The translations under genes and the position numbers were made by a program. Under the pieces are notes generated by a model. The model made no database searches. It was not told the origin of the DNA and worked only from the letters and a program-made list of their open reading frames with translations. From contig JBGATI010000001.1 in NCBI GenBank assembly GCA_044229245.1, forward strand, positions 130,346-194,345: DNA of 64,000 bases. The letters run 5' to 3'. The DNA comes from Gemmatimonadales bacterium (GTDB lineage Bacteria; Gemmatimonadota; Gemmatimonadetes; Gemmatimonadales; GWC2-71-9). Below, in pieces: positions 8,563 through 35,149 of this stretch; within the stretch, counting starts at the first letter, position 1; the number at the start of each line of letters is the position of its first letter.

Positions 8563-10644
8563 CTACCGCTTCAGGCTGACCAGCTCCTGCAGCATCTCGT
8601 CCGAGGTCGTGATCACGCGCGCATTCGCCTGGAACCCGCGCTGGGCGATGATCATGTCCGTGAACTCCTGCGACAGGTCGACGTTCGAGCTCTCCAGCGC
8701 GCCCGGCGTGATCGTGGACTGATTACTGGTCCCTGAGAAGCCGATGATCGCTCCGCCCGAGTTGGCCGATTCCGCGTACATGTTGTTGCCGGCGCGGATG
8801 AGGCCGCTCGGGTTGTTGAACGAGGCCATGGAGATCTGGGCCAGCGTCTGGTTGATGCCGTTCGTGAAGTACCCGGTGATGACGCCGCGGGAATCCACGC
8901 TGATGTCCTGCAGGTTGCCCATCGTGTAGCCGTCCTGGCTGCTGGCCACCGCGTTGGACGGACTCGCGAACTGGGACAGGCCGTTGATGTCGCCCAGCAC
9001 GCCGCTGTCCAGCTGGAGGTCCACCGGCGCCGTCGCGCCGCTGCCCGGATCGAACTGCAGGCTGTTGGCTCCGCCATTGTAGGCGAAGGTCTCGAGCCGG
9101 CCGTCGGTATCGAAGGTGACGAACCCGGTGCCGCCGCCGGTGATCGCGGCCGGGGCAGGCACGTTCGCCGTCCACAGCCAGCGGTTGGGCGAGGTCGGAT
9201 CCTTGGTGAAGTCCATCGACAGGCTGATCGGCGTGCCGATCGAGTCGTACACCGTGATCGCGGCCTGGTGGGTCACGTCGGTCGCCGCCTGGCGCTCGAC
9301 GTAGTTGCCCGCACGGCTGTCGAACACCGCATTGAACGCGGCCACGCCGCTCTTGATGTTGAGCCCGGACAGCGCGTTCACCGTCCCGCCATCGCCCTCG
9401 ATGGTCAGATTGCCGGTGGTCGGATCGATCGTCGCGCCGGTGATGTTGGTGATGCCGAGCGTGGTGTCGATGTTGGTCAGCAGCTGGCCGTAGGTCGAGC
9501 CGGCGCCGACGGTGAGACCACCCGTCGTGACGGCCGTGCCGCCCTTGTTGCCGTCCACGGTGATCGCCGCGCCCGCCGTCAGGCCCAGATTGGTCCCGGT
9601 GCCGTCCCGCAGGTTGGTCAGCAGGTCGGTGCTGGTGGCGATGTGGCTGAACTGGTCCGACGAGGCCGTCGCGGCCGCCGCGAGCGCACCATCCGCCGCC
9701 CCGAGCGCCTTGAGCAGCGCCGGGTTGGAACTGGTGATGCCGAGCGTGATGGCCGAGGTCGCGGTGAAATCGATCGCGCCGGTGCCGTTGTTCTGCGCGG
9801 CCGTCAGCGTGTTGAAGCCCGCGGCACCGAAGGTGTTGTTGATCTCGGCGACCAGGTCCTTCAGACTGTGGAAGTCGAAGGTACCGACACCGGTGTCCGC
9901 GGTCACGTAGGTGTAGGTCTGGCTGTTGGTGCCATCCGTCACCGTGATGGTGGTGCTGTCGGGAACCATGCCGAAGACGGAGGCATTCGCCGCGCCCTTG
10001 GCGAAGAGCCCGCTCATGTCGGAGCCCAGACCGGAATTGCTGGTCGCCTGCTCGACGCCGTACACCCGTCCCTGGGTGGCGAGGATCGTGCCCTGCGGCA
10101 CGGCCCGCGCATCGAGGTTGCCGGTCAGGACCACCTTGGAGGTGGCGCGCGCCGGCGACTTCTTGCCGAACGGCAGCGCGATATCCGTGACCGCCGAGCC
10201 CGTGGAGAGCACGCCGCTCGAATCGGCGTTGATGCCCTGCACCTTGAAGCCGTTGGCCGGCGATACCAGCTTGCCGTTGGCATCGAGCTGGAAGTTGCCC
10301 GCGCGGGTGTAGTACGAGCGCGTGCCATCGCTGACCACGAAGAGGCCGTCGCCCTGGATGGCGAGGTCGGTGCTCTGGCCGGTCGACTCCAGGTTGCCCT
10401 GGGCGAAGTTCTGGTCGATGGACCCGATCTTGGATCCCAGGCCGATCTGGATCGGGTTGATGCCACCGAGGTCACCCGGCGGACGGGAGGCGCCCTGCAG
10501 CAGCTGGGCGAAGGCCTCCGCGAAGGTCACACGGGACGACTTGTACGCCACCGTGTTGACGTTTGCGATGTTGTTGCCGATCACGTCCATCTTGGTCTGG
10601 TGATTCCGCAGACCAGAGACGCCGGCAAAGAGCGACCGCATCAT
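8563..10644 (-). CDS. flgE: Flagellar hook protein FlgE (long form)
   Basis: 693 aa. N-terminus [36 protein letters not shown]-terminus [42 protein letters not shown] large Ser/Thr/Gly-rich insert lies between them. Confidence 0.93.
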
Positions 10645-11387
10645 GGCTTTACAGACTCCACGGGTGAGGGAAGAATACGGGCCGCGCTGAGGGCGGCGAT
10701 GGCCGCCGCACCCGCGGACTGCTGATCGACTTCGACTACGTTGTCGAGCGGGATCGTGAGCTTGCCGGACTTGAGCACGACCGTGCCGCTCTGGAAGGCG
10801 ACACCGTCCACCGCCCCCCGGGTGTACGTCTGGACCGGGACGTCGGCACCGCTGGTCGACGTCACCGTGAGCTTGTAGGTGTAGCTGCCCGCCGGAAGCT
10901 TGCCGACGTTGATGTCCTGGCGCCCGCCGCTGCGGAAGCCGATATCGCTCTTGTAGACCTCGTTGCCGCTGCTGTCGAGCACGCTGAGCTCGGCCGTCCC
11001 GCCACCGGCGCCGATGTCCACCGTGACCCGGGACCCGGACGAGCCGTCCATCTCCAGCTGATTCCCCGCCGCGAGCACCGACCTGCCGATCATCGAGGTG
11101 CCGAGATTGCCCTTCGCCGCAAGCGTGTTGAGCTGGCCGGCCTGGGACTGGGAGGTCAGGATGGTCTGGATGTTCTGCATTCCCTCGAGACTGGAGAACT
11201 GGGCCAGCTGCGAGGCAAAGGCCGAGGCGTCCTGGGGCGAGGTCGGGTCCTGATAGCGGAGCTGCGTCACGAGCAGCTTCAGGAAGTCATCCTTCCCGAG
11301 CGTGCTCTTGCCCGTCCCCGTCGTGGTTGGGGGCGGGACCGTGGGAACCGCGGCGCCGATCGGGCCCTGCGTGATCGTAGTCATCAT
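10641..11387 (-). CDS. flgD: Flagellar hook capping/assembly protein FlgD
   Basis: 248 aa. FlgD signature [22 protein letters not shown] and a FLgD_ig-like C-terminus. 4-nt overlaps with both fliK and flgE. Confidence 0.92.
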
Positions 11388-14191
11388 GCGTCCTGGTTCT
11401 GGCGATCATCCCGATCGCGCTCGCGGAATCGCTGTTGAGGGTGGCGTTGTCCATCCCCACCGCGCTCCTGCTGCTGCCGGCCCGATCCCTGGCCCCGATC
11501 CTCCGCCGGCTGATCCGTGCCGCGGCCTGACGCGTTCTCGCCCTGCGCTCCCCCTGCACCGGCACCCCAGGCGACCTGGCTCCCGGCCGTGGAGGGAGAC
11601 TGCACACTCACCTTCGGATCCGCGAAGCCCTGCCTGACGAGTGCCGCCTGCAGGTCATCCATCCTGCGCTCGAGGTGCCGGGCCGATTCCTGGTCACTCG
11701 GCAGAATCACGGCGCGCACCTGATCGCCCTGCACCGTCACCCGGATCCGCGTCTCTCGTCCTTCGGCGTCCGCCACCTGCAGCGTGACGCGATCGGCAAG
11801 GCCTGCCGGACGTTCCTTCGTCTCAGCCCTATCGGGCATGTTGCGTGCCTCGCCGCCCGCGACCGCTTTCGCGCGCGCCTCGCCACGACCCGGCGACTCG
11901 GTCGGTGTCGGCATCGTCGCGGAAGCCCTGTTCTCCGAGTCACTTGGCTCAGTCCGCTCACGAGCCTCGGTCTTGCCCGCCTGCGGGGTCGCTCCGTCCT
12001 CACGATTCATCGAGGGAGGAAGCTCCTGCCGGGACGCCGGAAGAATCGGCGCCCGGGACGGCGCCGACGTGCGCGCAGCCGCCGGTTCATCGAGCGGCAT
12101 CGCCAGCGGCGCCGCGCGCTGAGGCGCCGGTTCCGCGACACGCACCCGCACCGACTCGCTTCGCGTCGTTCCACTGGACCGTGCCGGAGCGCCGTCGGCG
12201 GGATCATCGCCCGATACCGCTCGGCGCTGGTACGCCTCGGCGCGTGCGGCAATCGCGGGCTCCCGCGGTCCGGCGACGGCGCCACTCGGAACGGGCGACG
12301 CTCCACTGCGCAATGCCACCCGGTCGTCATCCATCACTGGAGTCGCTGCCGCACTGGGGACGGCGCGGGGCATTGTCGCCCTGGCTCCATCGGGACGCAC
12401 GCGGAGCGGGGCTCCACGTCCGGGAGCCGCAGGCGCCGGGTCCGGCAACGACATCGCGTCTGCATCCGGTCTCGCAGGCTCAGCGGCCCCTTCAGCCACC
12501 TGGCTGGCATCCTTCACCTGTGGTCCAATACGCTCGCGTGCCCCGACGCTCACCCGGAGACTGGTGATGTCGGCATCACCGAGCAGCGCGGCGAGTTCCT
12601 GGGCGAACGCCAGACCGCGACCGCTGCCAGCCGACATCGGTTCGGTCGGTACCTCGGAGGCCGCAGCCTCCGTCGTCGGCACTTCAGCCGTCGGCCCCTG
12701 GGCCGCCTCGGCCTCTCCGCGCGGCTCTTCGGCTTCGACCGCGTTTGGACTGTTCCCTGGTACGATCATCTGTGGCGGCACGGCCATGACGGGAACCGGC
12801 GGCGTCGGAGTCACCGTCGACGGCATCGCCGGAGTGCGACTCGTGTCCTTCTGCTCGTCCGCGGCATCCGACTTCCGCCGCGTGCCGCGACTCTCGCCAC
12901 TGGCTGTGCGCGTCGTGGATGCCGGCACGGCGACCGAGACCATCTTGATAGGCGCCGCGGTCACTCCACGAGGCTTCGGGACCTGGTCCGACGACGCGCG
13001 CACGATCTTCGGTGCCGCATCCGCGTCAGCCGTGCTCGCTGGCTTCCGGCTGGCATCATCAGAAGCCAGGGATGCATCCGCGGGAGCCATTGGTGCCGCC
13101 GGAGTCGGACTCGTCAGCGGCAGGGTGGGCGCAGCCGATCGAACGGAGCCCGCCGTCACGGGAGCGCCGGGCGCTGCAGCCCCCACGGGTTCACCGGCGG
13201 GCACGGTCGCCACCGCGTACTCCGAGTTCCCGGACGTCGGCGCTGACGAACTCTCGGCGCCGACACCCACGACCTCGGGGTCCGCAGGGGCTGTGACCGG
13301 AGCCTCCGCCCGCACGGCCGTGGTCGTCATCGGGATCGGGGCAGCGACGGTGCTCGACGGATTCGGCGCCGGTGCAAGGGAAACCGGCGCGGCGTCGCGA
13401 CGTGCGTCGGACAACGCCTTTGCCGTCCGCTGATTGGCGGACGCCTTGGCAACGGGACTCTCTTTCGGCGGCAACGGAGCGGGCTTCGCATCCGAGAGCG
13501 TACCCGACGGCTCGCTGGCCACCACGCGGCCCTGAAGCGGAGTCCGACCACCGGCCTGCGGCGGTCCATCGACAGGCGTCTCTCGGGATGCGGCGTCGCT
13601 GCCCGCTCCGGCGAGCCCGGGCGTCTCCGCCTCAGTCGCCATTCCATTCCGGTTGGGCACCGTCGTCGGGTCGGCCGCGCCGCCCTGGTTAGTGCCCACA
13701 CCCTCCGTGAGCACCCGTGTCTCGATGGCCGTCACGGCCATGACCGGTCTGACGGCCGGAACACGACCGGCATCCGCCGCCTTGGCAAGCCGGACGGCGT
13801 TGTTCACCGAGATCTTCGGCCCCGCGGTGACCACTGGCGTGGAAGCACGCCTGACGGCGGCCGCGGCGGTGAGCCGCTGCCCACGCTCGCGCGGGCCACG
13901 TGCCGCAGGGGCACTGGCCGTAGACGTGCTCTTGGCTTCCGAAGGCGTCGTCCCAGCCTCCGCGTCTCCCGCCGGTACCTCGGCCTGGCCCTCAGCCTGT
14001 GGTGTCGACGGCTGCTCGGCAGGCGTGGGCGCTGAGGTCGGCACCGGCGCCGGAGTCGGCACCGGAATCATGGCGGACTGAAGCGCGGCAACGAGCGCAG
14101 CACTGAAGAGCGCCGGGTCCTCGACCGTCGGCTGCGGTGCGGCCGGCTCGGCGCCACTGATCGGGAGAAGCAACGCGATCGGACTGGTCAC
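11384..14191 (-). CDS. fliK: Flagellar hook-length control protein FliK (very long, Ala/Pro-rich)
   Basis: 935 aa. Low-complexity A/P/T/S-rich body. C-terminal Flg_hook-like domain ([55 protein letters not shown]). Sits between the fliJ-side genes and flgD. Confidence 0.8.
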
Positions 14192-21261: not shown

Positions 21262-22716
21262 CTATTCGGCTACGGCGGATTCTTCCTTGGGACCATTCAG
21301 CTTGTTGCGGAGCGTGCGCTCACTGATTCCGAGCAGCTTGGCGGCGCGGGTCCGATTTCCGCCAGTCTCGACCAGGGCGCGCTGGATCGCCACCCGCTCC
21401 AGGTCGTCGAGATTGAAGGAGTCGGGCGCGGCCTGACCGGTCGTCTCGGCCGCGGGTACGGCAGCGCTGGACCTGACTGCGGGAGCCGAGGGGAGCGGCG
21501 TTGCTCCGATACCGGCGATGGGCGCCATCGTCGCCGGCCTGATGGAGACCGCCTCGAGGATGCCCTGAAAGACCTCGGGACGCAGCACCCCGCCGCGCGA
21601 AAGGATCACGGCACGCTCCACCGCATTGCCGAGCTCGCGGACGTTGCCGGGCCAGGAGTGGCGCATCAGCAGGTCGGTCGTCTCACTGGCGACGCCCTGC
21701 ACCGAGACGCCGATCTCCTCCGCCGCGCGCCGGGCGAAGTGCTGCACCAGCATCGGGATGTCTTCCTTCCGCTCGCGCAGGGGCGGGGTGCGGATCGGCA
21801 TCACGTTGAGCCGGTAATACAGGTCGCTCCGGAACCGGCCCGCCTCGGCCTCATGCCGGAGATCGCGGTTGGTCGTCGCGATCAGACGCACGTCCACCCG
21901 GATCGCCTGGTGGCCGCCCACCCGCTCGAACTCATGCTCCTGCAGTACACGGAGCAGCTTCGACTGCAGGTCGAGCCGCATCTCCGAAATTTCGTCCAGC
22001 AGCAGGGTCCCGCCGTGAGCGCGTTCGAAGGCGCCGGCGGACCGCATGGTGGCACCGGTGAAGGATCCCTTCTCGTGGCCGAAGAGCGCGCTCTCGACGA
22101 GGCCCTCGGGCATCGCGGCGCAGTTGAGGCTGATGAAGGGGCCGTCGTGGCGCGGGCTCTGATCGTGGATGGCGCGAGCGAAGAGTTCCTTGCCGGTCCC
22201 GGATTCTCCCTCGAGCAGCACCGTCGCCTTGGTCGGCGCCACGGTGGCGATGGTCTCCATCACGCGGCGGAACTGCACGCTCTCGCCCACGAGGGCGCGA
22301 GTCGAGCGGAACTTGTTGATCTCCCGGCGGAACTGCTCGTTCTCGCGGCGAAGCCGGACGACTTCGAGCGCCTGGGTGACGGCGATCTCCAGCGTCTCCG
22401 GACGGATCGGCTTGGTGAGGTAGTCGATCGCACCCGACTTAATCGAAATGACGGCGTGTTCGATACTGGAGTAGCCGGTCATGATGATGACCGGGACCTG
22501 ATAGCCCTCTTTTTCGAGCAGACTGAGGAGGTCCAGGCCGGTGGCCTTGGGCATCCGATAGTCCGCGATGATCAGATCGACTGGGGTCCGGGTGACCGTC
22601 TTGATGGCTTCCTCGACGCTGGTGGCGAGGAGCGGACGATGCCCGATCTTGGAGAGATGGTGTTCGAGCACGACCCCGGTAGCGGGTTCGTCGTCGACAC
22701 AAAGGATGGTTGCCAT
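21262..22716 (-). CDS. Sigma54-dependent response regulator (NtrC/FlbD/FleR-like enhancer-binding protein)
   Basis: REC domain (ILCVDDEP...DLIIADYRMP), an AAA+ sigma54-interaction domain (GESGTGKELFARAIH, a GAFTGA-type EKGSFTGA, GGTLLLDEI) and a C-terminal Fis-type HTH (AAKLLGISERTLRNKL). The start at ATG 22716 has a GAGGGGGG Shine-Dalgarno sequence. The ORF-track start is 22749. Confidence 0.92.
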   Translation of the reverse strand: MATILCVDDEPATGVVLEHHLSKIGHRPLLATSVEEAIKTVTRTPVDLIIADYRMPKATGLDLLSLLEKEGYQVPVIIMTGYSSIEHAVISIKSGAIDYLTKPIRPETLEIAVTQALEVVRLRRENEQFRREINKFRSTRALVGESVQFRRVMETIATVAPTKATVLLEGESGTGKELFARAIHDQSPRHDGPFISLNCAAMPEGLVESALFGHEKGSFTGATMRSAGAFERAHGGTLLLDEISEMRLDLQSKLLRVLQEHEFERVGGHQAIRVDVRLIATTNRDLRHEAEAGRFRSDLYYRLNVMPIRTPPLRERKEDIPMLVQHFARRAAEEIGVSVQGVASETTDLLMRHSWPGNVRELGNAVERAVILSRGGVLRPEVFQGILEAVSIRPATMAPIAGIGATPLPSAPAVRSSAAVPAAETTGQAAPDSFNLDDLERVAIQRALVETGGNRTRAAKLLGISERTLRNKLNGPKEESAVAE

Positions 22717-22825
22717 AGCCCCCCTCGACAGCGAAATGATCCCGGACATCGCAGGCCTCAGGGCTCGACCGGGACAGGGAGGGGGGCCCCGAATGCCGTT
22801 CGATGGTGTCTGCGAATGTCTGGCC

Positions 22826-22853
22826 TAAAGTTCGCCTCTAATGTAGCCGATAC
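22826..22853 (+). promoter_or_regulatory. Sigma28 (FliA)-type promoter upstream of flgL
   Basis: TAAAGTTCGCC...N16 total...GCCGATAC, against the consensus TAAA-N15-GCCGATAA. It lies 35 nt upstream of the flgL ATG. Confidence 0.6.
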
Positions 22854-22887
22854 GGAAAATATTGCCACCCTCCTTCCGGGTCGTCGC

Positions 22888-23760
22888 ATGCGGATTTCGA
22901 ACAGCCTCCTTCAGTCCCGGGTCCTTCGCGACCTCCAGGGCAACCTCGCCAACCTGGCGCAGACCCAGGCGCAAGTCTCTTCTGGCAAACGATTTGAGCG
23001 AATGTCCGAGGACCCGTTGGCGGGGACCCAGGTGCTCAGCGCCGACCGGGGACTCCGGGCGATCGAGCAGTATCGGAGGAATTCCTCCAGCGCCCGGGCC
23101 CGGACCGACGCCGAGGAGTCGGTGCTCTCCCAGATGACCGACCTGATCTCCCGGGCTAAGCAACTGGCGCTCCAGGAAGGCTCTGCCGGGGGAAGCGCAT
23201 TGACCCGGTCGGCCGCGAAGGCCGAGGTGGACCGGATCATTGAGCAGGTCGTCGCGCTCGGGAATACCCAGGTCGGCAGCGAGTACCTCTTCGCCGGCAA
23301 TCAGACCACGACCAAGCCATTCGACGCCGCCGGCCTCTACTACGGCGACAACGGGACCCGTCAGGCCGAGATCGGCCAGAACTACAAGCTTACGACCAAC
23401 CACACCGGCCAGGAGCTGCTGGTCTCGAGCGGGGTGCTGTCCTCCCTGCAGGGGCTGAGCACCGCGCTCAACGCCGGCATCCCCAGCACCATCGGCGCGA
23501 GCGCTTTCGCCTTGGACAGCGCCTTCGATGCCACTCAGACCATGCTGGCCACCAACGGCGCGCGCGTGCGCCAGATCGAGTCCGCCATGCAGAACACGGA
23601 TGCGCTGGAAACCAGCTTCACCGCGAAGAAGAGCGATGCCCAGGGGATCGACCTCGAGGTGGCTACGACCAAGTTCGTCGGGGCACAGAACACGCTGCAG
23701 GCGGCGCTGCTCTCGACCTCGAAGATCCTCAACACCTCGCTGACGGATTACCTCCGGTGA
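22888..23760 (+). CDS. flgL: Flagellar hook-filament junction protein FlgL (HAP3)
   Basis: 290 aa. MRISNSLLQSRVLRDLQGNLANLAQTQAQVSSGKRFERMSEDP (flagellin_N-like) and a C-terminal flagellin_C-like helix. This is the last third of the 886-aa track ORF. The upstream part of that ORF is antisense to the regulator gene. Confidence 0.88.
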   Translation: MRISNSLLQSRVLRDLQGNLANLAQTQAQVSSGKRFERMSEDPLAGTQVLSADRGLRAIEQYRRNSSSARARTDAEESVLSQMTDLISRAKQLALQEGSAGGSALTRSAAKAEVDRIIEQVVALGNTQVGSEYLFAGNQTTTKPFDAAGLYYGDNGTRQAEIGQNYKLTTNHTGQELLVSSGVLSSLQGLSTALNAGIPSTIGASAFALDSAFDATQTMLATNGARVRQIESAMQNTDALETSFTAKKSDAQGIDLEVATTKFVGAQNTLQAALLSTSKILNTSLTDYLR

Positions 23761-24224
23761 CCGCTCCCACCCAGCCGGCCGCGCCGGCCGGTGAGACGCT
23801 GTTCATCGCCTCGCGCCTCTTCGGCCCGCTCCAGGTCCCGCGCAGCGACGTCATCGTCATGCCGGAGGGGATGCTCGGCTTCGCCGGCGAGCGCCGCTTC
23901 ATCATGCTCCCCGCCGCGCCGGACGGCATCTTCTGGCTGCAGAGCATCGACGAAGGGGGGCTCGTCTTCCTGCTGGTCGATCCATTCATCTACTTCCCGG
24001 GCTACGTGGTCGACCTCCCCGAGACGCCGGATCCCGCACCGGGCGAGGAAGTGGCCGTCCTCGCGATCGTCACCCTTCCGCGGGGCGACACCGACATGTG
24101 CACGGCCAACCTGCAGGGCCCGCTGGTCATCCACTTCCCGACCCGGATCGCTCGTCAGGTCGTGCTGCCCGACAGCCACTACCACACGAAGCACCCGCTC
24201 GACCTGCGCGAGAAGCTCGGATGA
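23757..24224 (+). CDS. fliW: Flagellar assembly factor FliW
   Basis: 155 aa. FliW-family features (MPEGMLGFAGERRFIML, FWLQSIDEGGLVFLLVDPF, ANLQGPLVI). GTGA overlap with the flgL stop. Confidence 0.9.
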   Translation: MTAPTQPAAPAGETLFIASRLFGPLQVPRSDVIVMPEGMLGFAGERRFIMLPAAPDGIFWLQSIDEGGLVFLLVDPFIYFPGYVVDLPETPDPAPGEEVAVLAIVTLPRGDTDMCTANLQGPLVIHFPTRIARQVVLPDSHYHTKHPLDLREKLG

Positions 24225-25486
24225 AGTCGACCGGAACGCGACCGGTGCCCGCAGCGAGCACGGTGCGTCCGTCCCCCGACCCGGCGCCACTCACGCAGGG
24301 CCTCCTGCCCGAAGCCGTCGTCCTCGACTGGCCGATCGGCACCGGCACGGGGTGGCAGGTCTTCGGGCTGAATCTCGCGCTGGAGCTGGTGCGGGACGGC
24401 CGGGTGACCCCGCTGCTGCTCGAACCCGCGGACCCGGCCGCGCTCCATCCCCTGCACCGCTTCGCGCTGACACTGCCACTCGCCCAGCAGACCGAGCTGC
24501 GCGACCTGCTCCATTCGGCCGGCCCGGCCGGGCTGCGGACCGACTTCCCTGTGCTCCGCGCGCTCGGCAACGGCTTCCAGGGCAACGACGCGGGCCTGCG
24601 CCTCACAAGTCCCCGCAATCTCGGCGTGATTTTCTTCGAGGACACCGCCCTCGGCCCCGAGGCGCTCGCCCGCGCCCGGAGCCACGACGCGATCGTGGCC
24701 GGCTCGGCCTGGAACGGCGCAGTGCTGCGCGCCGCCGGCCTCTCCGCCGTGCACGTGATTCCGCAGGGCATCGACCCGGCCGTCTTCCACCCGGCACCTC
24801 GCAGCGGACTGCTGCGCGACCGCTTCGTGGTCTTCAGCGGAGGAAAGCTCGAGTACCGCAAGGGACAGGATCTGGTGGTCGCGGCCTTCCGGGAATTCTC
24901 CTCCCGTCACCGCGACGCCCTCCTGGTCACGGCATGGCACAACCCGTGGCCGCAAACCATGGTCGGAATCGACAGCGCCGGCCACGTGCGCGGCCTGCCA
25001 GCACTGGACGGACGCGGGCGGCTGGCCCTCGCTCCATGGCTGGTCGCGAATGGACTGCGTCCCGAGGCCGTCCTCGATCTCGGCGCCCTGCCCAATCAGC
25101 AGATGGCGCAGACCATCCGGGAGTGCGATGTCGCCCTCTTCCCGAATCGCTGCGAGGGCGGCACCAATCTCGTCGCGATGGAAACGATGGCCTGTGGTGT
25201 TCCGGTGATTCTTTCCGCCAATACCGGGCACCTGGATCTGCTCGCGGAGTCCGGCGCCGCGATCCCTCTCACCCGGCAGCAGCCGGTCCGCGGGCGCTGC
25301 CCGCTGTTCCGGGGCACCGAGGGGTGGGGCGAGAGTGATGTGGCGGAGATGGTCGAGCGGCTGGAGGAGGCGTATCGCGACCGCAACGCCATTCGGGAGC
25401 GCGGGGCCCGTGGTGCGGGATTCCTGCACCGGGCCTGGACCTGGCGGCAGCGTACCGCGGAGATGCTCGAGGTCCTCGCCGGCTGA
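24221..25486 (+). CDS. GT4-type (GT-B) glycosyltransferase, translationally coupled to fliW
   Basis: 421 aa from ATG 24221 (ATGA overlap with the fliW stop). Contains an EX7E-type motif FPNRCEGGTNLVAMETMACGVPVILSANTGH. Confidence 0.8.
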   Translation: MKSTGTRPVPAASTVRPSPDPAPLTQGLLPEAVVLDWPIGTGTGWQVFGLNLALELVRDGRVTPLLLEPADPAALHPLHRFALTLPLAQQTELRDLLHSAGPAGLRTDFPVLRALGNGFQGNDAGLRLTSPRNLGVIFFEDTALGPEALARARSHDAIVAGSAWNGAVLRAAGLSAVHVIPQGIDPAVFHPAPRSGLLRDRFVVFSGGKLEYRKGQDLVVAAFREFSSRHRDALLVTAWHNPWPQTMVGIDSAGHVRGLPALDGRGRLALAPWLVANGLRPEAVLDLGALPNQQMAQTIRECDVALFPNRCEGGTNLVAMETMACGVPVILSANTGHLDLLAESGAAIPLTRQQPVRGRCPLFRGTEGWGESDVAEMVERLEEAYRDRNAIRERGARGAGFLHRAWTWRQRTAEMLEVLAG

Positions 25487-25494
25487 GGTGTCGC

Positions 25495-25516
25495 CACGCC
25501 GCGCCGCCGCGGCGTG
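25495..25516. terminator. GC-rich hairpin between convergent GT4 and TPR-GT genes (possible bidirectional terminator)
   Basis: CACGCCGCG-ccgc-CGCGGCGTG, a perfect 9-bp stem. There is no U-tract on either side. Confidence 0.4.
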
Positions 25517-25519
25517 ATG

Positions 25520-27672
<2,153 letters not shown>

Positions 27673-27676
<4 letters not shown>

Positions 27677-29175
27677 ACCGGCACCGGGGCGTCGGTGAAG
27701 AGCACGTTGTAGACGTATTCGAAGGTGTGGGTCTCCTCGGGCGGGAACGGGATCAGGAACGGCGCCTCGGGGATCATGCGATAGCAGCCGTATCCGCAGG
27801 CCTGCATGAAGGCCCGCATCCCCTGCCCGCTGGTGCCCATCTTCTGGAGCGCAAACTCGTTGATCTCGCAGATCACGTACGGGACCTTGCGCGCCATCAG
27901 CAGCAGCATCGCCCCCTTGAGTACCCGGTGTTCCGAACCTTCCGCGTCCACCTTCACCAGCCGGACCCGCTGTCCGGCGGTCGCGGCAAGGAGCTGTCCC
28001 AGGGTCCCCCGGCGCACCGTCTTCACTTCGTGATGCTCACGGCTCCGGCTGTTGAACGGATGCTCGCCCACATCCCAGAGGGCGTGCCCGCCGGTATTGT
28101 CGGCATTCACGTGCAGTTCGGCCTCGCCCTCCTGGTCCCCGACCGCCTCCTCGAAGAGCTCGACATTGCCCACGCCGTTCAGGGCGATGTGCTCGCGGAT
28201 GTGGCTGGCATTTCGTGGCTCGGGCTCGAAGGTGTAGACGTGTCCTTCCGCCCCGACCGCATGGGCGGCGAGCATGGAGAAGTATCCCACGTGGCCGCCG
28301 ACATCGATGAAGGTGTCGCCCTCCTCGAGCACGTTGGTGATGAAGTAGGACACCTCCGGCTCGTAGAACTCGCCCGCGGCGAGGGCCTGCAGCATCGGCC
28401 CCTCGCTGGCCTCGCCCGAGTCGAGCCGCAGCGTGAGCGCGAGCTGGCGTCCGGAGGCCTGGAACGACACTTCGACCTCCTGCACCGGGTCGGCGGGCCG
28501 TTCCTGAGCCGGCGCGGAGCGCGGACGCGGCGCCGACACCTCGCGCTTCCGGAGCACGAAGCCCCAGTACATGTCCGGGCCGGCGGGCACCTGCAGATCG
28601 ATGCGGATGCCGTCGACGAGATCGAAGCCCGCGCGCTCCATCAGGCTGAGCCACGCCGCCTGACCGAGGACGCTGTAGTGGTTCGGATTCAGCTCATGGT
28701 GGCAGGCGGTCTCGGGCGCCGGGACTTCCACGTACAGCGCGCCCCCCGGGGCGAGCACGCGGGCAAATTCCGTCAGCGTGAAGTACGGCGCCACACTGTG
28801 CTCGAGGGCGTGGCGGCACCAGATCAGGTCGAAGCTCCCGGCCTCGTACTCGAGGAAGGACTGGTCCATCTCGGCCACGTCGAACCCGCGTGCCTGACAC
28901 GCCGTCAGGTCATCCTGCCCGATCGTGATGCCGATGGCCTGCAGTCCGGCCGCACGGAAGAGCTCGAGCGCCAGGCCCTGGCCGCAGCCGACGTCGAGCA
29001 CCCGGGCTCCTGGGGCGAGCGGCACGGTCGCGCGTACCCGCTCCCACATCTGCCGGGTGATGTCGGTGTGCTGCTGCGACGGCAGTTCGGGATAGACGTC
29101 GTCCCGCAGCCGGGCCAGGAACTCGGTGAAGCGGGCAGCCTGCTGGTCGGCGACGGGGATGGAACTGGCGGTCAT
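27673..29175 (-). CDS. Fused double methyltransferase (class I SAM-MTase domain plus FkbM-family MTase domain)
   Basis: 500 aa. N-terminal domain has VLDVGCGQGLALELF...DLIWCRHALEH. C-terminal domain has TFIDVGGHVGYFS...LVKVDAEGSEHRVLKG (FkbM-type). ATGA overlap with the upstream gene's stop. Confidence 0.8.
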
Positions 29176-31259
29176 GGAGCGCTCTCCTCGAGGGCGGCGC
29201 GGATGGTGGAGACAACCGAGCCCCAGTCACCGGGAGACGGCTGGCGAAACAGTCGGGCAGTCGGGTACCAGGGGCTGTCGGGGCGGTCCAGCAGATAGCG
29301 CCAGCAGCAGGTGTGGGAGAGCATCAGCCAGACGGGGCGCGCGAGGGCCCCGGCGAGGTGCGCGACCGAGGTATCGATGGTGATGATGAGATCGAGTTCC
29401 TGCATGAGCGCCGCCGTGTCGGCGAAGTCGCCGAGTCGCGCCGTCGGATCGAGCATGCGCGCCGCGTCAGGCACCGCCGCGAGTTCGGCGGCCGTGGAGC
29501 CCACCTGCAGGTTGACCCAGTCGATCCCTGTCATGGCAAGGAGCGGAGCCAGTGCCGGGAACGGCACCGAGCGGAACCGGTTGTTCGACTGCGCGGGAGA
29601 CCCCGACCAGACCAGCCCGACACGACGCCGGCCGGAGGCGGGAGGAAGCTGAGGCGCCGCCGCCTCTGGAGCACGCAGATAGGGCACGGCGTTGGGAATC
29701 GTGTCGAGGGTCGTGCCGAAGAGATGCGGCAGGCTCATCATCGCGACCTGATAGTCCGCCTGTACCTCGGTCGCCCCGGGCTCGACGAACTCCGCGACGC
29801 CGGCCAGGCTCTCGAACAGCCGGCGCAGCGGCGACTGCACCTGCAGCAGGACCTTCGCGCCGTGCCCGGCCAGCATCGGGAGGTAGCGGGCGAAGTGGAT
29901 GCTGTCGCCGAATCCCTGCTCCCAGAACACCAGCAGGCGCTTGCCCGCGAGGGGTTCACCCATCCAGCGCGGGAGGCGATAGGGCATCGGACGCAGGCGG
30001 CGCCGCTGGGCCTGGAAGCGCCACTCGAATTCGCGCCACCCTTCCTCATACCTGCCGAGACGCAGGAGCGGCAGCGCGAGATTCCAGTGCGCCTCGCTGT
30101 TGCCCGGCTGCCCGGCGATCGCCTCCCGGCAGGCGCTGATGGCCTGCTCCGCCTTCCCTACTTCGCTGAGCGCGCGACCGAGGGCCGAGAGCGCCGTGGG
30201 CATGCCGGGATTGATCGAGAGCGCCCGCTCGGCTGCCGGGATGGCTTCCTCGTAGCGTCCCATGTCGCAGAGGGCGCAGGCGCGATTGACGTGCGCCTCC
30301 GCCGCGCGTGGGTTGCTGGCACAGGCGCGATCGAAACAGGTGAGCGCATCGGCGGCACGGCCGAGATCGAGATAGACCGCGCCGAGGTTGCACAGCGCCA
30401 TCACGTGACGCGGGTCGCGCGCGACCACCGATTCGAGGATCGGGAGCGCGTCGGCGTGCCGGTCGAGCGCACGGAGGGCCGCGCCGAGATTCGAGGCGGC
30501 GAGAACCGACGAGGGATCGGCGCGCGTGGCGATCTCGAAGTAGCGCAGCGCCGCCGCCGGATCGCCGCGCCGGAGCGCGAGGACGCCGAGGCCGGTGTTC
30601 GCCTCGAAATCGGCGGGAGCGAGCCGCGCCGCGGCGTGATAGCTCGCGAGTGCCGCCTCCGGTTTGCCCCGGTCGAGCTGCACCCCGCCGAGCACGCCCA
30701 GCGCGGTCACATCGCGGGGCGCCAGGGCGAGCAGCGCTTCGAGCTCTGCCTCCCCCGAGGCCAGATCTCCTACCGCGCAGAGGGCACGCGCCAGCGCGAG
30801 CCGGGAGGCGTGCTGCGACGGCCGCGCGGCGAGCGCCTGACGATAGGCCGCGATCGCCTCGGTGAGCGCCCCGGACGCGACGAGGCCGCCGGCGAGATTG
30901 TGTAGCATCTCCGGCTCGCCCGGGGCGGAGGCGAGCGCGCGGCGGTAGGCGGTGACGGCATCCTTGGGCCGTCCCTGTGCGAGGCGAATGTTCCCGAGGG
31001 TCGTCAGCGCGGCCGGGAAATCGGTCCGCCAGTTGAGGGCGCGGCGAACCAGATCGGCCGCTGCCCCCTGATCGCCGCGCTGGTGCGCCGCGAGTCCGAG
31101 CAGGTGGAGTGCATCGGCCTGCCGGGGGTCCTCGAGGAGGATGCTTCTATAGAGGTCCTCCGCGTCGGCGAGGCGGCCGGCCTGATGATGCGCCACGCCC
31201 TCCATGAGGAGCGCAGCGATTCTGGCAGGATCCCGATTGGCGGCAACTTGTGATGGCAT
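29172..31259 (-). CDS. TPR-repeat protein with C-terminal GT9-like glycosyltransferase domain, paralog 2
   Basis: About 695 aa from ATG 31259 (the ORF track uses a TTG at 31307). TPR repeats, then FEWRFQ...RWMGEPLAGKRLLVFWEQGFGDSIHFARYLP...VGLVWSGS...DLIITIDTSVAHLAGALARPVWLML...PWYPTARLFRQ. The start is uncertain. Confidence 0.75.
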   Translation of the reverse strand: MPSQVAANRDPARIAALLMEGVAHHQAGRLADAEDLYRSILLEDPRQADALHLLGLAAHQRGDQGAAADLVRRALNWRTDFPAALTTLGNIRLAQGRPKDAVTAYRRALASAPGEPEMLHNLAGGLVASGALTEAIAAYRQALAARPSQHASRLALARALCAVGDLASGEAELEALLALAPRDVTALGVLGGVQLDRGKPEAALASYHAAARLAPADFEANTGLGVLALRRGDPAAALRYFEIATRADPSSVLAASNLGAALRALDRHADALPILESVVARDPRHVMALCNLGAVYLDLGRAADALTCFDRACASNPRAAEAHVNRACALCDMGRYEEAIPAAERALSINPGMPTALSALGRALSEVGKAEQAISACREAIAGQPGNSEAHWNLALPLLRLGRYEEGWREFEWRFQAQRRRLRPMPYRLPRWMGEPLAGKRLLVFWEQGFGDSIHFARYLPMLAGHGAKVLLQVQSPLRRLFESLAGVAEFVEPGATEVQADYQVAMMSLPHLFGTTLDTIPNAVPYLRAPEAAAPQLPPASGRRRVGLVWSGSPAQSNNRFRSVPFPALAPLLAMTGIDWVNLQVGSTAAELAAVPDAARMLDPTARLGDFADTAALMQELDLIITIDTSVAHLAGALARPVWLMLSHTCCWRYLLDRPDSPWYPTARLFRQPSPGDWGSVVSTIRAALEESAP

Positions 31260-31428
31260 GCCCTCGGAAAGGCAAGCGGCGTACCGCCTGTACCGGGCGC
31301 CCGACAATCACGCAACTCGTTGCCAGTCAGAGGCTTGCCCGTTTGCCTTCGACCCCGGGTGGGGCCCCCTCCCACGGTACAATTTGCCGCTCCGGCCGGC
31401 GCACCCGGCGGAAAGGACCTGATGGGCC

Positions 31429-31455
31429 TCAAGTTCGCGGCGGCTGCGCCGATAC
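31429..31455 (+). promoter_or_regulatory. Sigma28 (FliA)-type promoter of the flagellin gene
   Basis: TCAAGTTCGCG...N15...GCCGATAC. The -10 element ends 85 nt upstream of the fliC ATG. The extended -35 (AAGTTCGC) is shared with the flgL promoter. Confidence 0.7.
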
Positions 31456-31539
31456 ATCTCTCTGACGGTCACTACGGACCGCTCATCGAAGTACCGGAGC
31501 AGGGAAGCCCCGGACCGCAAGACCAGGAGATGTACCCGT

Positions 31540-32652
31540 ATGAAGATCCAGACCAACGTCGCCGCCAACAACGCGTACGGCAACCTCGCCAAGACCGGCA
31601 TGGCCCTCGAGAAGAGCATCGCCAAGCTGTCCAGCGGTTTCCGTATCAACCGTTCGGCCGACGACGCCGCGGGCCTCGCCATCGCGAACAAGCTGCGCAG
31701 TGACGTGCGTTCGCTCCAGGCGGCTCAGCGGAACGCCGCGCAGGGCACCGCGATGCTGCAGATCGCCGACGGCGCGATCGGCACCATCTCGGGCATGCTG
31801 GACCGGCTCAAGGAACTCGCGACCCAGGCCAACTCGGCCAGCATCGGCAGCGAGGCTCCGAAGCTTTCGGCGGAGTACCAGAAGATCACGCAGGAAATCG
31901 ACCGCATCGTGAGCACCACCAAGTATCAGGGCGCGAGCCTGGTCGATGGCACCTTCGGCGCGACGGTCAACACCTCCTCCACCGCCCTGGCGGCGGCGGG
32001 CGTGTCGAACATCAACCTGAACGGCGCAGCGGCCGGGTCGTACACCCTGGCCTCGGCAGCGACGGCGGCCACGCTTACCGCGGCCACCGGCAGCCAGATC
32101 GTCACCGGTATCTCCACCAGCGCGTCTGGCTCGGTGACGTTCAGCAACTTCGGCGTGACGGTCAACGGTGGTTCGAGCTGGGTCGGGGCGCTGAGCCTCA
32201 ACGGCACGAACGTCACTGTCGGCGCGACCACCACGGCCGATTTCATGGTCAGCTCCAGCGGCTCGTACGGCGTTGGCGGCAACGACCGCGTGTCTGTCTC
32301 GGCGGGCAACCTGAATCTGGCCGTGGCTGGCCTGGGCCTCACCACCGGCGGCACGGTCCTGGACACCCAGGCCGGCGCAGCGGCGGAGCTCACCAAGATC
32401 GACACCGCCATCTCGAAGGTGAACGCGGCCATCGGCGACGTGGGTGCGGCGCTGAACCGGTTCGACTACGCGACGGCGAACACCTCTTCGGCCATCCAGA
32501 ACTTCACGGCCGCTGAGAGCACGATTCGCGACGCCGACATGGCGGCGGAAATGACGACCTTCACCAAGAACCAGATCCTGCAGCAGGCTGGTACGGCCAT
32601 GCTCGCCCAGGCCAACCAGGCGCCGCAGACGATCCTCAAGCTGATCCAGTAA
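31540..32652 (+). CDS. fliC: Flagellin
   Basis: 370 aa. MKIQTNVAANNAYGNLAKTGMALEKSIAKLSSGFRINRSADDAAGLAIANKL at the N-terminus. C-terminus AESTIRDADMAAEMTTFTKNQILQQAGTAMLAQANQAPQTILKLIQ. The central region is rich in Ser/Thr/Gly/Asn. Confidence 0.96.
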   Translation: MKIQTNVAANNAYGNLAKTGMALEKSIAKLSSGFRINRSADDAAGLAIANKLRSDVRSLQAAQRNAAQGTAMLQIADGAIGTISGMLDRLKELATQANSASIGSEAPKLSAEYQKITQEIDRIVSTTKYQGASLVDGTFGATVNTSSTALAAAGVSNINLNGAAAGSYTLASAATAATLTAATGSQIVTGISTSASGSVTFSNFGVTVNGGSSWVGALSLNGTNVTVGATTTADFMVSSSGSYGVGGNDRVSVSAGNLNLAVAGLGLTTGGTVLDTQAGAAAELTKIDTAISKVNAAIGDVGAALNRFDYATANTSSAIQNFTAAESTIRDADMAAEMTTFTKNQILQQAGTAMLAQANQAPQTILKLIQ

Positions 32653-32767
32653 TCAGCCGCAGGACGAGGGTCGGACCGAAGGACATTGACGCACGACCCC
32701 CGGAGGCCAGCTCATCGGTCCCCGGGGGATCGTCTTCCAGCAGGACCAGCACGAGCGGGAGGTCAGC

Positions 32768-35149
32768 ATGGCGACGACATCAGGCAGCTCCGCATCGCCG
32801 GCCAGCGCGGTCACCGGCATCATCAGCGGCATCGACTACCGCTCGCTCATCGACCAGATCATCCAGGCCGAAAGCGCGCCGGCGACCCGGCTGCGCAACC
32901 AGGAAACGAAGTTCAACGACCAGCTCAAGGCCTTCGCGACCTACCGCGGACTGCTCGCCGCGGTCCAGTCGGCGGCCGCGACGCTCCAGGACGGCACCGC
33001 CTTCGACGGCGTGTCCGCCACCACCTCCGCGATCTCCGGTACCCGGGCGCTCCTGAGCGCCAGCGGCGGACGCACCGCCGCGACCGGCAGCTATCGCGTC
33101 GAGGTCTCGACGCTTGCCAAGGCGCAGAAGCTTGGCAGCACCAGCTTCGCCAGCGCGAACACCGCGCTGGCAATGACGCAGGGCAGCTTCACGTTGAACG
33201 GCGCCACGATCTCGGTGGACGCCAACGACACGCTGCTCTCCATCCGCGACAAGATCAACAACACCAACACCGGCGCCAGCGCGAGCAAGGTCTCCGCCTC
33301 GGTGCTGCAGGTCGATGCCACCCACTTCCGCCTGGTGCTGACCAGCGAGGCCACTGGGGCGGCGGGCATGACGTTCGCCAATGTGTCGGGCGGTATTCCC
33401 CAGGCGCTCGGCCTGACGAACGGCAGCAACGTGATCCAGGCCGGCGCCGTGCTGGTAGCCGGGGCCGATGCCAGCTTCAAGGTGGACGGCATCGCGATGA
33501 CGCGGACGTCCAACACGGTGACCGACGCGATCCAGGGCGTGACGCTCAACCTCTCCGCCGAGGAGACGGGGGCCGTCACGATGGTCACCATCGAGCATTC
33601 GGGGGACCAGGCGCAGAAGGCGATGCAGAGTTTCGCCGACGCCTGGAACAAGATGGTCGACTTCGTGAAGACCCAGCAGACCGCCCCCAAGAGCGGTGCG
33701 GCCGCGCCGGCGCTCTACAACGATGCCTTTGTCCGCACCGTGTCCGGCACCCTGTCGCGGACCCTGCTGCAGACCATCGGGGGCGCAGCAGCCGATCTCT
33801 CGACTGCGGGCCTCGCGGGGCTGAGCCTCGATCAGACCGGGAAGCTCACCTTCGATTCCACCAAGTTCGGTGCGGCCTTTTCCGGGCGGCTCAGCGACAT
33901 CCGGACCCTGTTCAGCCAGGTCGGCTACACCACCGACTCGCGGGTGAGCTACCTGACTTCGTCGTCGGCCACGGTCGCGGGCACCTACGCGGTCAACATC
34001 ACCCAGGCCGCAACCCAGGCGACGCTCCTCGGCACCGGCTTCAGCGGCACCTACGCCGACGACGCGACGCCGGACACGATGTCGATCACCGAGACGCAGA
34101 GCGGGGCCACCGCCACGATCTCGCTCGCGAACGGCGCGACGACCGACTCGATCGTGAGCGCGCTCAACATCGCCTTCGCCGCCGCGACCAAGCACAAGGT
34201 CGGCACCGGGACCGTGCTCTACGGCGATGTCGCCGGCACCGTCCCGATGACGGCGACCACGACCTTCGCCTCGCTGCGCGCGGCGGGGGGCGGAAGCTTC
34301 GGCGTCGTCAACGGGCAGAGTGTGTCTTACAGCGGCAAGCGCGGCGACGGCTCCACGTTCTCCAGCAGCTTCACGATCACCGACGCCAGCACGAAGACCA
34401 TCGGGGATCTCGTAGGGCAGATCCAGGCCGCCTACGGGTCGACCGGCAATGTCAGCGTCGTCAACGGCACCATCGTGGTCGAGGACAGTCAGGCCCGCAC
34501 CTCCGCGCTCGACCTGACGCTGACCGCCAACAACGAAGGGGGCGGGACACTCAGCTTCGGCGCCACCTCCGTGCTCGCGACCGGGCGCCCCGCGCTGAGC
34601 CTCACCGCCACCAACGTCGGCGGGCAGGTGCAGGTCGCGACGACGAGCTATGGCAGCGCCTCGGGCTTCACCGTGGCCTACACGCCGGGCGGCGCCGACG
34701 GCACCGCGCAGCTCGGCATGGCGACGGGGGCCGTCGCCGGCCTCGACGTGCAGGGCACCCTCGGCGGCTTCGCCGCCACGGGGAGCGGCCGGACACTGCT
34801 CGGCGCCACCGGCACCGCGGTCGACGGCCTGGCGGTGCTCTACTCGGGAACCACGACCGGGGCCGCCGGCGACACCACCATGACCCTGGGGACCGGCGCC
34901 CTGCTGCAGCGCTCGCTCGATACCTGGCTTGCGGCCACCTCCGGAACGCTTGCCACCAAGGAGACCTCGCTCACGACCCGGGCGAAATCGCTCGAGGACC
35001 GCGCGCTGCAGGTCGACGACCGCCTCTCCCGGCGGCGCGAGAGCCTGCTCAAGCAGTATGCCGCAATGGAGACCGCGCTCGCGCGCTTCCAGTCGCAGTC
35101 GAGCAGCATCACCGCGCTGTTCAACAGCACCACGAAGTCCAATGGCTGA
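32768..35149 (+). CDS. fliD: Flagellar filament cap protein FliD (long form)
   Basis: 793 aa. N-terminus ITGIISGIDYRSLIDQIIQAESAPATRLRNQETKFNDQLKAF. C-terminus RRESLLKQYAAMETALARFQSQSSSITALFN. GGGAGG Shine-Dalgarno sequence. Confidence 0.9.
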   Translation: MATTSGSSASPASAVTGIISGIDYRSLIDQIIQAESAPATRLRNQETKFNDQLKAFATYRGLLAAVQSAAATLQDGTAFDGVSATTSAISGTRALLSASGGRTAATGSYRVEVSTLAKAQKLGSTSFASANTALAMTQGSFTLNGATISVDANDTLLSIRDKINNTNTGASASKVSASVLQVDATHFRLVLTSEATGAAGMTFANVSGGIPQALGLTNGSNVIQAGAVLVAGADASFKVDGIAMTRTSNTVTDAIQGVTLNLSAEETGAVTMVTIEHSGDQAQKAMQSFADAWNKMVDFVKTQQTAPKSGAAAPALYNDAFVRTVSGTLSRTLLQTIGGAAADLSTAGLAGLSLDQTGKLTFDSTKFGAAFSGRLSDIRTLFSQVGYTTDSRVSYLTSSSATVAGTYAVNITQAATQATLLGTGFSGTYADDATPDTMSITETQSGATATISLANGATTDSIVSALNIAFAAATKHKVGTGTVLYGDVAGTVPMTATTTFASLRAAGGGSFGVVNGQSVSYSGKRGDGSTFSSSFTITDASTKTIGDLVGQIQAAYGSTGNVSVVNGTIVVEDSQARTSALDLTLTANNEGGGTLSFGATSVLATGRPALSLTATNVGGQVQVATTSYGSASGFTVAYTPGGADGTAQLGMATGAVAGLDVQGTLGGFAATGSGRTLLGATGTAVDGLAVLYSGTTTGAAGDTTMTLGTGALLQRSLDTWLAATSGTLATKETSLTTRAKSLEDRALQVDDRLSRRRESLLKQYAAMETALARFQSQSSSITALFNSTTKSNG

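Follow-up and report, generated by a model that had tools for sequence, protein, structure and literature searches.

Gene content of the interval between fliW and fliC

We analyzed a stretch of 64,000 nucleotides from a Gemmatimonadales bacterium (hereafter the window; assembly GCA_044229245.1, contig JBGATI010000001.1, forward-strand positions 130,346 to 194,345), and more precisely four genes that lie at 24221-31307 between the flagellar genes fliW and fliC. The window has a G+C content of ~69%, and the best non-self matches of its proteins come from named Gemmatimonadales or Gemmatimonadota. Look-ups of three window proteins by exact sequence had no hit, owing to differences in start codon or strain. 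The original prediction, made from the sequence alone, had described the four genes as a flagellin-modification island encoding a glycosyltransferase of family 4 (GT4), two proteins that combine tetratricopeptide repeats (TPR) with a glycosyltransferase (GT) domain, here called TPR-GT A and B, and a double methyltransferase. Its gene calls and coordinates agree with ours. The island and its flanking genes and promoters are as follows:

22826-22852 (+): sigma28-type promoter TAAA-N16-GCCGATA, in front of the flgL-fliW-GT4 operon
22888-23760 (+): flgL, hook-filament junction protein, 290 aa, heading the operon that ends in GT4 (Flagellin_N Pfam match)
23757-24224 (+): fliW, flagellin-binding assembly factor, 155 aa (PF02623 FliW, E 1e-28; NCBIfam FliW models)
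24221-25486 (+): GT4-type (retaining GT-B) glycosyltransferase, 421 aa (Pfam and Foldseek)
25520-27676 (-): TPR-GT B, FlmG family (TPR Pfam matches; BLASTP to FlmG)
27673-29175 (-): double methyltransferase, 500 aa, class-I S-adenosylmethionine (SAM) plus FkbM domains (Pfam, NCBIfam)
29172 to 31205, 31259 or 31307, the start codon being ambiguous (-): TPR-GT A, FlmG family, first gene of the minus-strand operon (BLASTP, hhalign)
31429-31454 (+): sigma28-like promoter TCAA-N15-GCCGATA, 5' of fliC in the divergent intergenic region, read directly from the sequence (GCCGATA at 31448-31454)
31540-32652 (+): fliC, flagellin, 370 aa, presumed acceptor (Flagellin_N and Flagellin_C Pfam matches)

On the plus strand, the end of flgL overlaps the start of fliW by 4 bp, and the ATG of the GT4 gene lies on the stop codon of fliW (ATGA, also 4 bp). 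The promoter in front of flgL matches the sigma28 pattern exactly, with 0 chance matches expected from shuffled sequences. These features bear out the earlier suggestion that GT4 is coupled to fliW and probably served by the sigma28 promoter of flgL. On the minus strand, the genes of A, the methyltransferase, and B overlap by 4 bp at both junctions (ATGA and GTGA), and make up the tightly coupled operon, divergent from fliC, that had been described. The gap between this operon and fliC is 280-334 bp. A sigma70 scan of 22600-32800 gave no promoter, including none for the minus-strand operon. None of the four enzymes has transmembrane segments, and the island lacks genes for a flippase, an oligosaccharyltransferase, a polyprenyl-phosphate GT, a transporter, or a polymerase. 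In line with the original prediction, no pse, leg, or neu gene, nor any other gene of sugar-nucleotide biosynthesis, was found within the 64 kb.

The convergent stop codons of GT4 and TPR-GT B are separated by 33 bp (25487-25519), which contain a GC-rich inverted repeat (CACGCCGCG...CGCGGCGTG) without a T-tract. Judging from its sequence, this repeat may form a bidirectional terminator hairpin. A crude gene caller based on G+C content at third codon positions proposed antisense frames for GT4 and B; these were rejected, and Pfam supports the annotated frames. In the Bacillus-type arrangement flgL-fliW-csrA, the gene csrA follows fliW. The corresponding slot of the window is occupied by GT4, and a search by regular expression only gave no CsrA-like motif in the window despite the presence of fliW.

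FlmG-related glycosyltransferases and their partner enzymes

TPR-GT A and B are collinear paralogues, with 33% identity over 670 aa (E 3e-89). Their TPR Pfam matches cover approximately residues 30-430, and the C-terminal ~290 aa are modelled as a two-lobed Rossmann domain of the GT-B type. The original prediction had likened this layout to the modular logic of FlmG, the flagellin glycosyltransferase of Caulobacter. We located FlmG of Caulobacter vibrioides (596 aa, L006:1354-3144) via the flmG primer NK-74 given in the supplement of PMC7591256. In BLASTP, it is matched by A with an E-value of 1e-42 (28% identity over 501 aa) and by B with an E-value of 1e-31, and both alignments extend from the TPR region through the entire C-terminal domain. 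Several motifs are common to FlmG and A/B: GW..YE.R, EQG.GD, VGL.W, D.AAL...DLVI, LAGA.G.P, and WYP..R.F. We also built a profile from a 66-sequence alignment of the window C-terminal domain, in which B is one row. Residues 299-596 of FlmG align with this profile over 268 columns (hhalign probability 99.9%, E 3e-31), and phmmer with the C-terminal domain of FlmG recovers all modules of the family. In this domain, A and B are 40% identical to each other and ~31-33% identical to FlmG. By these sequence comparisons, A and B are true homologues of FlmG in both domains, beyond a shared architecture, which strengthens the earlier likening. To our knowledge, FlmG is the only characterised member of its domain family.

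The C-terminal domains had been described as GT9-like rather than Maf-like, and the modelled structure agrees with this view. The AlphaFold2 model of the C-terminal domain of A (predicted local distance difference test, pLDDT, 94) has GT9 enzymes and TibC as its top Foldseek matches (3tov, 1psw, 2h1h, 4rap/4rb4), with template modelling (TM) scores of 0.5-0.6, E-values of 6e-8 to 1e-5, and identities of 12-16%. In sequence, the GT9 signal is faint. The family PF01075 matches A with an E-value of 2e-5 and 24.3 bits (cut-off 22), B with 0.22, and FlmG itself with 0.065; these partial, near-threshold matches cover only ~75 residues and fall on the same part of the family in the three proteins. 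A full-length GT9 sequence match was not found, the NCBIfam model of heptosyltransferase I reaching 20.9 bits for a cut-off of 185. At E<=0.01, Pfam gave no match to the Maf domain (MAF_flag10) in any of the four island proteins, and none to GT41 (PF13844) in A or B. The search of the C-terminal domain against PDB sequences returned chance or generic matches only. The modelled fold is GT9/TibC-like and not Maf-like.

The best structural matches of the domain are thus the GT9 enzymes WaaC/WaaF and TibC, a bacterial autotransporter heptosyltransferase (BAHT) that acts as a protein O-heptosyltransferase. TibC illustrates that this fold can O-glycosylate Ser residues of a protein. However, these enzymes have no TPR fusion and share only the 12-16% sequence identity given above with the island domain, and we found no evidence of an adenosine diphosphate (ADP)-heptose donor for the island enzymes. 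The Maf proteins of Campylobacter, Aeromonas, Magnetospirillum, and Clostridium have a similar job, the cytoplasmic O-glycosylation of flagellin before export, but are an unrelated family.

The plus-strand enzyme has Pfam matches on residues 276-417 (GT4-conflict, PF20706; Glyco_trans_1_4, PF13692; Glycos_transf_1, PF00534), and its AlphaFold2 model (pLDDT 91) is a complete GT-B. The top Foldseek matches of this model in PDB are GlgM, sucrose-phosphate synthase (SPS), PimA/PimB', MshA, and BshA, with E-values down to 6e-15. Almost all of the top 50 matches are GT4-type enzymes, which upholds the class given in the original prediction. The double methyltransferase has a class-I SAM domain at residues 48-187 (PF13489, E 6e-21, also PF08241) and an FkbM domain at residues 291-462 (PF05050, E 4e-21). 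It matches TIGR01444 with an E-value of 5e-28 and 98 bits (cut-off 37.7), and it has a weak match to RfbT of V. cholerae. Against PDB sequences, both GT4 and the methyltransferase gave generic matches only. The Pfam name GT4-conflict evokes anti-phage defence. We rejected this reading, as PADLOC gave only generic matches to TPR and methyltransferase and none to GT4.

Conservation, fusions and known counterparts

The full-length orthologues of the methyltransferase (P0121-P0133) are 58-97% identical to that of the window, the best being P0121 (502 aa, 97%). In GCA_044229445.1, a record with the same FliC, the methyltransferase also has 502 aa and not the 500 aa of the window, so that the window stems from a close relative of that record and not from the record itself. 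One of them, P0133, has a Gemmatimonadota name, and the contexts examined (P0122, P0133) are flagellar and of the Gemmatimonadota type. The island is found between flgL-fliW-GT4 and fliC-fliD-fliS in three other Gemmatimonadota lineages, at 86%, 58%, and 45% methyltransferase identity:

L007: methyltransferase 86% identical to the window; TPR-GT A and B; fourth slot occupied by B
L008/L009: methyltransferase 58% identical; an A-like TPR-GT only; fourth slot empty
L010: methyltransferase 45% identical; one TPR-GT with a B-like TPR domain; fourth slot occupied by an extra class-I methyltransferase

All of these loci have GT4, the double methyltransferase, and one or more FlmG-like TPR-GTs. The fourth slot varies, as is typical of glycosylation islands. 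The presence of two substrate-recognition enzymes, which had been put forward as a special feature, loses this status: two of the related lineages have a single TPR-GT, and multiple paralogues on the flagellin side are common elsewhere.

Since the genomes of this comparison are related, we sought an independent lineage. Such a case is L096, which belongs to an unrelated lineage of the FlbT/FlaF type (G+C 50%) and has a 17-kb island ending directly upstream of flagellin. Immediately upstream of its flagellin-FlbT-FlaF cluster, at L096:14569-18152, lies the gene of an 899-aa fusion of the GT4 clade, a TPR array, and an FlmG-like GT. The same island has a second FlmG-like TPR-GT and a homologue of the methyltransferase N-domain with 53% identity, as well as GT41-TPR, GT2, Methyltransf_24, and GT-methyltransferase fusion genes, the GT41 match being in a separate protein. 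Other fusions join the methyltransferase N-domain to GT4 (P0147), a GT9-like TPR-GT to the methyltransferase N-domain (P0158), and GT4 to a GT9-like domain (P0292, P0294, and P0297, from Microcoleus). These fusions and L096 provide evidence, from sequence, that the FlmG-type GT, the GT4 clade, and the methyltransferase work together.

FlmG-class enzymes were described from Caulobacter crescentus (Ardissone et al. 2020, PMC7591256) and Brevundimonas subvibrioides (Kint et al. bioRxiv 2022, 10.1101/2022.03.25.485807), with pseudaminic acid (Pse) and legionaminic acid (Leg) as donors. Like FlmG, with which they are homologous in both domains, the island enzymes have an N-terminal TPR array and a C-terminal GT-B domain, are soluble, carry a faint GT9 signal, and are encoded next to flagellin (in L006, the Caulobacter flmG is beside three flagellin genes). 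However, the identity is only ~28-34%, the phylum is Gemmatimonadota instead of Alphaproteobacteria, and the island has two paralogues. It also adds GT4 and the double methyltransferase, which are absent from the described FlmG system, it has no Pse/Leg genes within the 64 kb of the window, and it occurs with fliW whereas the FlmG-type loci that we saw carry FlbT/FlaF.

Comparative genomics of Enterobacteriaceae and Geobacillus has revealed flagellin glycosylation islands (FGIs) that include methyltransferases (De Maayer & Cowan 2016, PMC4875605, PMC5109656). They resemble the island of the window in being variable, in lying among late flagellar genes, and in encoding GTs, FkbM and SAM-dependent methyltransferases, and GT-methyltransferase fusions. 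Yet FGIs usually have sugar-biosynthesis genes together with GT41 or GT2, whereas the GT of the island is FlmG-type (GT9-like) without linked sugar genes. Hence, the description of the locus as a flagellin-modification island is supported, but islands of glycosylation plus methylation were an already recognised theme (PMC4875605). FlmG-class systems and glycosylation and methylation islands with GT-methyltransferase fusions are known; the novelty is in the phylum, in the association of FlmG-type enzymes with one particular GT4 clade and with a double methyltransferase, and in the evidence from fusions and an independent lineage for this trio. Literature searches on flagellin glycosylation in Gemmatimonadetes, and on flagellin glycosyltransferases with TPR or O-methyl groups, returned nothing relevant.

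A putative route of flagellin glycosylation and its alternatives

Taking sequences and structural models together, we think that the island probably encodes a cytoplasmic, lipid-carrier-independent O-glycosylation of flagellin of the FlmG class, in which GT4 would extend and the methyltransferase would methylate the glycan. The N-terminal TPR arrays of A and B would dock unfolded or chaperone-free flagellin, as shown for FlmG, and the GT9-like GT-B domain would move a nucleotide-activated sugar onto Ser/Thr residues of the surface-exposed centre of FliC. By analogy to FlmG, the TPR domain would provide acceptor docking and the GT domain the choice of donor, and the two paralogues would differ in site, in donor, or in both. 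The order that we infer for the following steps is that the soluble GT4, which is encoded with FliW in the sigma28 flgL-fliW operon, most likely adds a hexose-type residue to the sugar on the protein, that the class-I/FkbM methyltransferase most likely methylates the glycan, and that the modified flagellin would then leave via the flagellar type III system. The donor could be either a common nucleoside diphosphate (NDP)-sugar or a nonulosonic acid whose genes would lie in another part of the genome, as they do in Caulobacter. The central residues 141-285 of FliC, which is identical to that of GCA_044229445.1, have 29% Ser+Thr and no Lys; the share of Ser+Thr is 26% in FliD and 20% in FlgE. The Ser/Thr-richness to which the original prediction had drawn attention is thus present, but in the FliC centre it is ordinary for flagellins.

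Several observations weigh against this interpretation. The EQGxGD motif of B is degenerate and reads ASMPAD, with the Asp kept. The cases of synteny among Gemmatimonadota share descent and are not independent. The C-terminal domain (29172-30050, minus strand) belongs to a very broad family, with 41,039 clusters at 50% identity for E<=1e-3 and 19,275 for E<=1e-30; some of its members are giant, with lengths of 1,200-3,140 aa and the domain repeated 3-6 times in tandem (P0361-P0510). We sampled the neighbourhoods of its 80 top-ranking metagenome loci, with 39-51% identity and a total of 757 kb, and 74 had no flagellin within the DNA examined. Finally, the same enzymes are found in cyanobacteria that have no flagella (L098, L094) and as neighbours of type I secretion genes (L091).

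The remaining 6 of the 80 loci do have a flagellin gene. In L044, L048, and L059, the TPR-GT gene is adjacent to and divergent from flagellin, as in the window, and L077 and L082 have three TPR-GT paralogues in an FlbT/FlaF/FlgI cluster. The 149 nearest neighbour open reading frames (ORFs) of the sample match 157 Pfam families, and no theme dominates; Flagellin_N (3) and FlbT (2) alone are both specific and recurrent. Hence, co-occurrence with flagellin, which had been proposed as a check, gives a divided answer: all Gemmatimonadota relatives examined have the cassette within the flagellar locus, and the same enzyme types are beside flagellin in L096, but most of the close relatives sampled from the wider family are not next to it. 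Since most of them are not beside flagellin, we assigned the acceptor in the window from its context and not from family membership.

The best-placed alternative departs from the proposed route in the donor only. The TPR-GTs would form a canonical FlmG system and transfer Pse or Leg made elsewhere in the genome, while GT4 and the methyltransferases would decorate the product or act on something else. We regard this as possible, on the doubtful side. The only characterised members, those of Caulobacter and Brevundimonas, use CMP-Pse and CMP-Leg (PMC7591256; 10.1101/2022.03.25.485807). Moreover, the only neighbours of flmG in Caulobacter are flmH and flagellin genes, and the genes for Pse synthesis (flmA/B, flmC/D, neuB) lie at three distant loci (PMC7591256). 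As flmG is in this way unlinked from most Pse genes, the missing linkage in the window says nothing about the donor, and the "ordinary nucleotide sugar" of the original prediction loses its ground. On the other hand, the modest identity of the window C-terminal domains to that of FlmG means that donor specificity may differ, no nonulosonic-acid gene occurs in the 64 kb, and some of the modification by the Brevundimonas FlmG is independent of Pse/Leg (10.1101/2022.03.25.485807). By contrast, two NDP-sugar 4,6-dehydratase/epimerase genes accompany a related cassette at L043:2-13864 (G+C 59%). This cassette comprises two FlmG-like TPR-GTs together with a GT4 orthologue (E 4e-101), a Methyltransf_24 protein, and a radical-SAM protein, with no flagellar gene in view. 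Its gene linkage gives a weak hint of a deoxyhexose donor for these enzymes.

A broader and speculative view, which we hold to be rather unlikely, is that the FlmG-type GT, this GT4 clade, and this methyltransferase domain form a widespread and portable toolkit for cytoplasmic O-glycosylation and methylation of proteins without nonulosonic acids. The target would then depend on the TPR array. It would be flagellin in the window and in L096, and a different protein, secreted or at the cell surface, in non-flagellated cyanobacteria or beside genes of type I secretion systems (T1SS). For example, the set at L091:4305-10739 (GCA_947445715.1) includes GT4, a fusion of the methyltransferase N-domain and GT4, FlmG-like TPR-GTs, and an FkbM methyltransferase. 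It adjoins type I secretion ABC and HlyD/AprE-like genes on a contig of 10.7 kb without flagellar genes, and, judging from its composition, this set may serve to glycosylate a T1SS substrate. In the cyanobacterium [Phormidium] sp. ETS-05 (CP051168.1, L098:5614-11815), three FlmG-like modules, which look split or frameshifted, lead into a GT4 with 50% identity to that of the window; Hsp70 and DnaJ genes follow. If the toolkit were real, the Gemmatimonadota island would be the first tractable case of an FlmG-class system initiating a methylated hexose/deoxyhexose oligosaccharide.

Such distributions could also be read as a sign that the enzymes merely reside in the flagellar cluster and build or modify a glycoconjugate unrelated to flagella, for example a polysaccharide with methyl groups or a different protein that is secreted or exposed at the surface. 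In line with this, most close relatives of the GT domain are away from flagellar genes, cyanobacteria and loci with type I secretion genes also have the toolkit, and FkbM and GT4 are common in polysaccharide pathways. However, GT4 follows a sigma28-type promoter and is coupled to fliW in translation, the position of the island is kept down to 45% methyltransferase identity, and the same enzyme types are beside flagellin in the independent lineage L096. Furthermore, A and B are homologues of an enzyme proven to glycosylate flagellin, and the island consists of four soluble enzymes without transporter, flippase, or polymerase. We therefore consider a non-flagellar target unlikely.

We give a similarly small chance to the double methyltransferase acting on flagellin side chains in the manner of FliB and not on sugars. 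Flagellin methylation islands exist (PMC4875605), and class-I methyltransferases are chemically versatile. Yet the enzyme has no similarity to FliB, and the lack of Lys in the surface-exposed residues 141-285 of FliC argues against a FliB-type methylation of surface lysines. With this lack of Lys, the FkbM/RfbT-like C-terminal domain, and the repeated fusion of the methyltransferase N-domain to glycosyltransferases, sugar O-methylation is favoured, and the glycan rather than the protein is most likely the methylated partner.

It is very improbable that one or both TPR-GTs are mainly flagellin-binding chaperones or regulators. GmaR, which combines the roles of glycosyltransferase and anti-repressor, would be a precedent, and B has the degenerate motif mentioned above, an Asp in place of His in VDTSVAHLAG, and is dispensable in the L008 lineage, but it retains every invariant column of the 66-sequence alignment (including Asp49 in the numbering of the A C-terminal domain), its C-terminal domain is 79% identical between the window and L007, and FlmG itself departs at the same His position.

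With O-glycosylation of flagellin by FlmG-class enzymes as the favoured interpretation, the locus places true FlmG homologues inside the flagellar regulon of a distant phylum, consistently partnered, and elsewhere fused, with GT4 and methyltransferases. Should the glycan turn out to be a methylated oligosaccharide, the FlmG class would have a wider chemistry than is known, and glyco-engineers would also gain a soluble modular system in which the TPR part provides for the acceptor and the GT part for the donor. Otherwise, this is an ordinary and plausible flagellin glycosylation island. For annotation, the results are a warning that the label "TPR-containing glycosyltransferase family 9 protein" covers flagellin glycosyltransferases.

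The rest of the flagellar region lies on both sides of the island. Downstream of fliC come fliD and then fliS, and flgK is not adjacent to flgL. Two features precede the flgL promoter:

1-20,800 (-): long flagellar operon (flhA, flhB, fliP/O, fliM, fliL, flgE, fliK, fliI, fliG, fliF)
21262-22749 (-): sigma54-type (sigma54-dependent) response regulator, between the flgB-side operon and flgL

The sigma54 consensus TGGCAC-N5-TTGC has no match anywhere in the window. Some axial proteins are unusually long (window 8563-14191 and 32768-35149), with an FlgE ORF of 693-907 aa, a FliK-like ORF of 935 aa, and a FliD of 793 aa. Downstream of the flagellar and chemotaxis-like region, two adjacent genes at 44454-48241 on the minus strand encode proteins with RCC1 repeats and Big_2 domains (830 and 453 aa).

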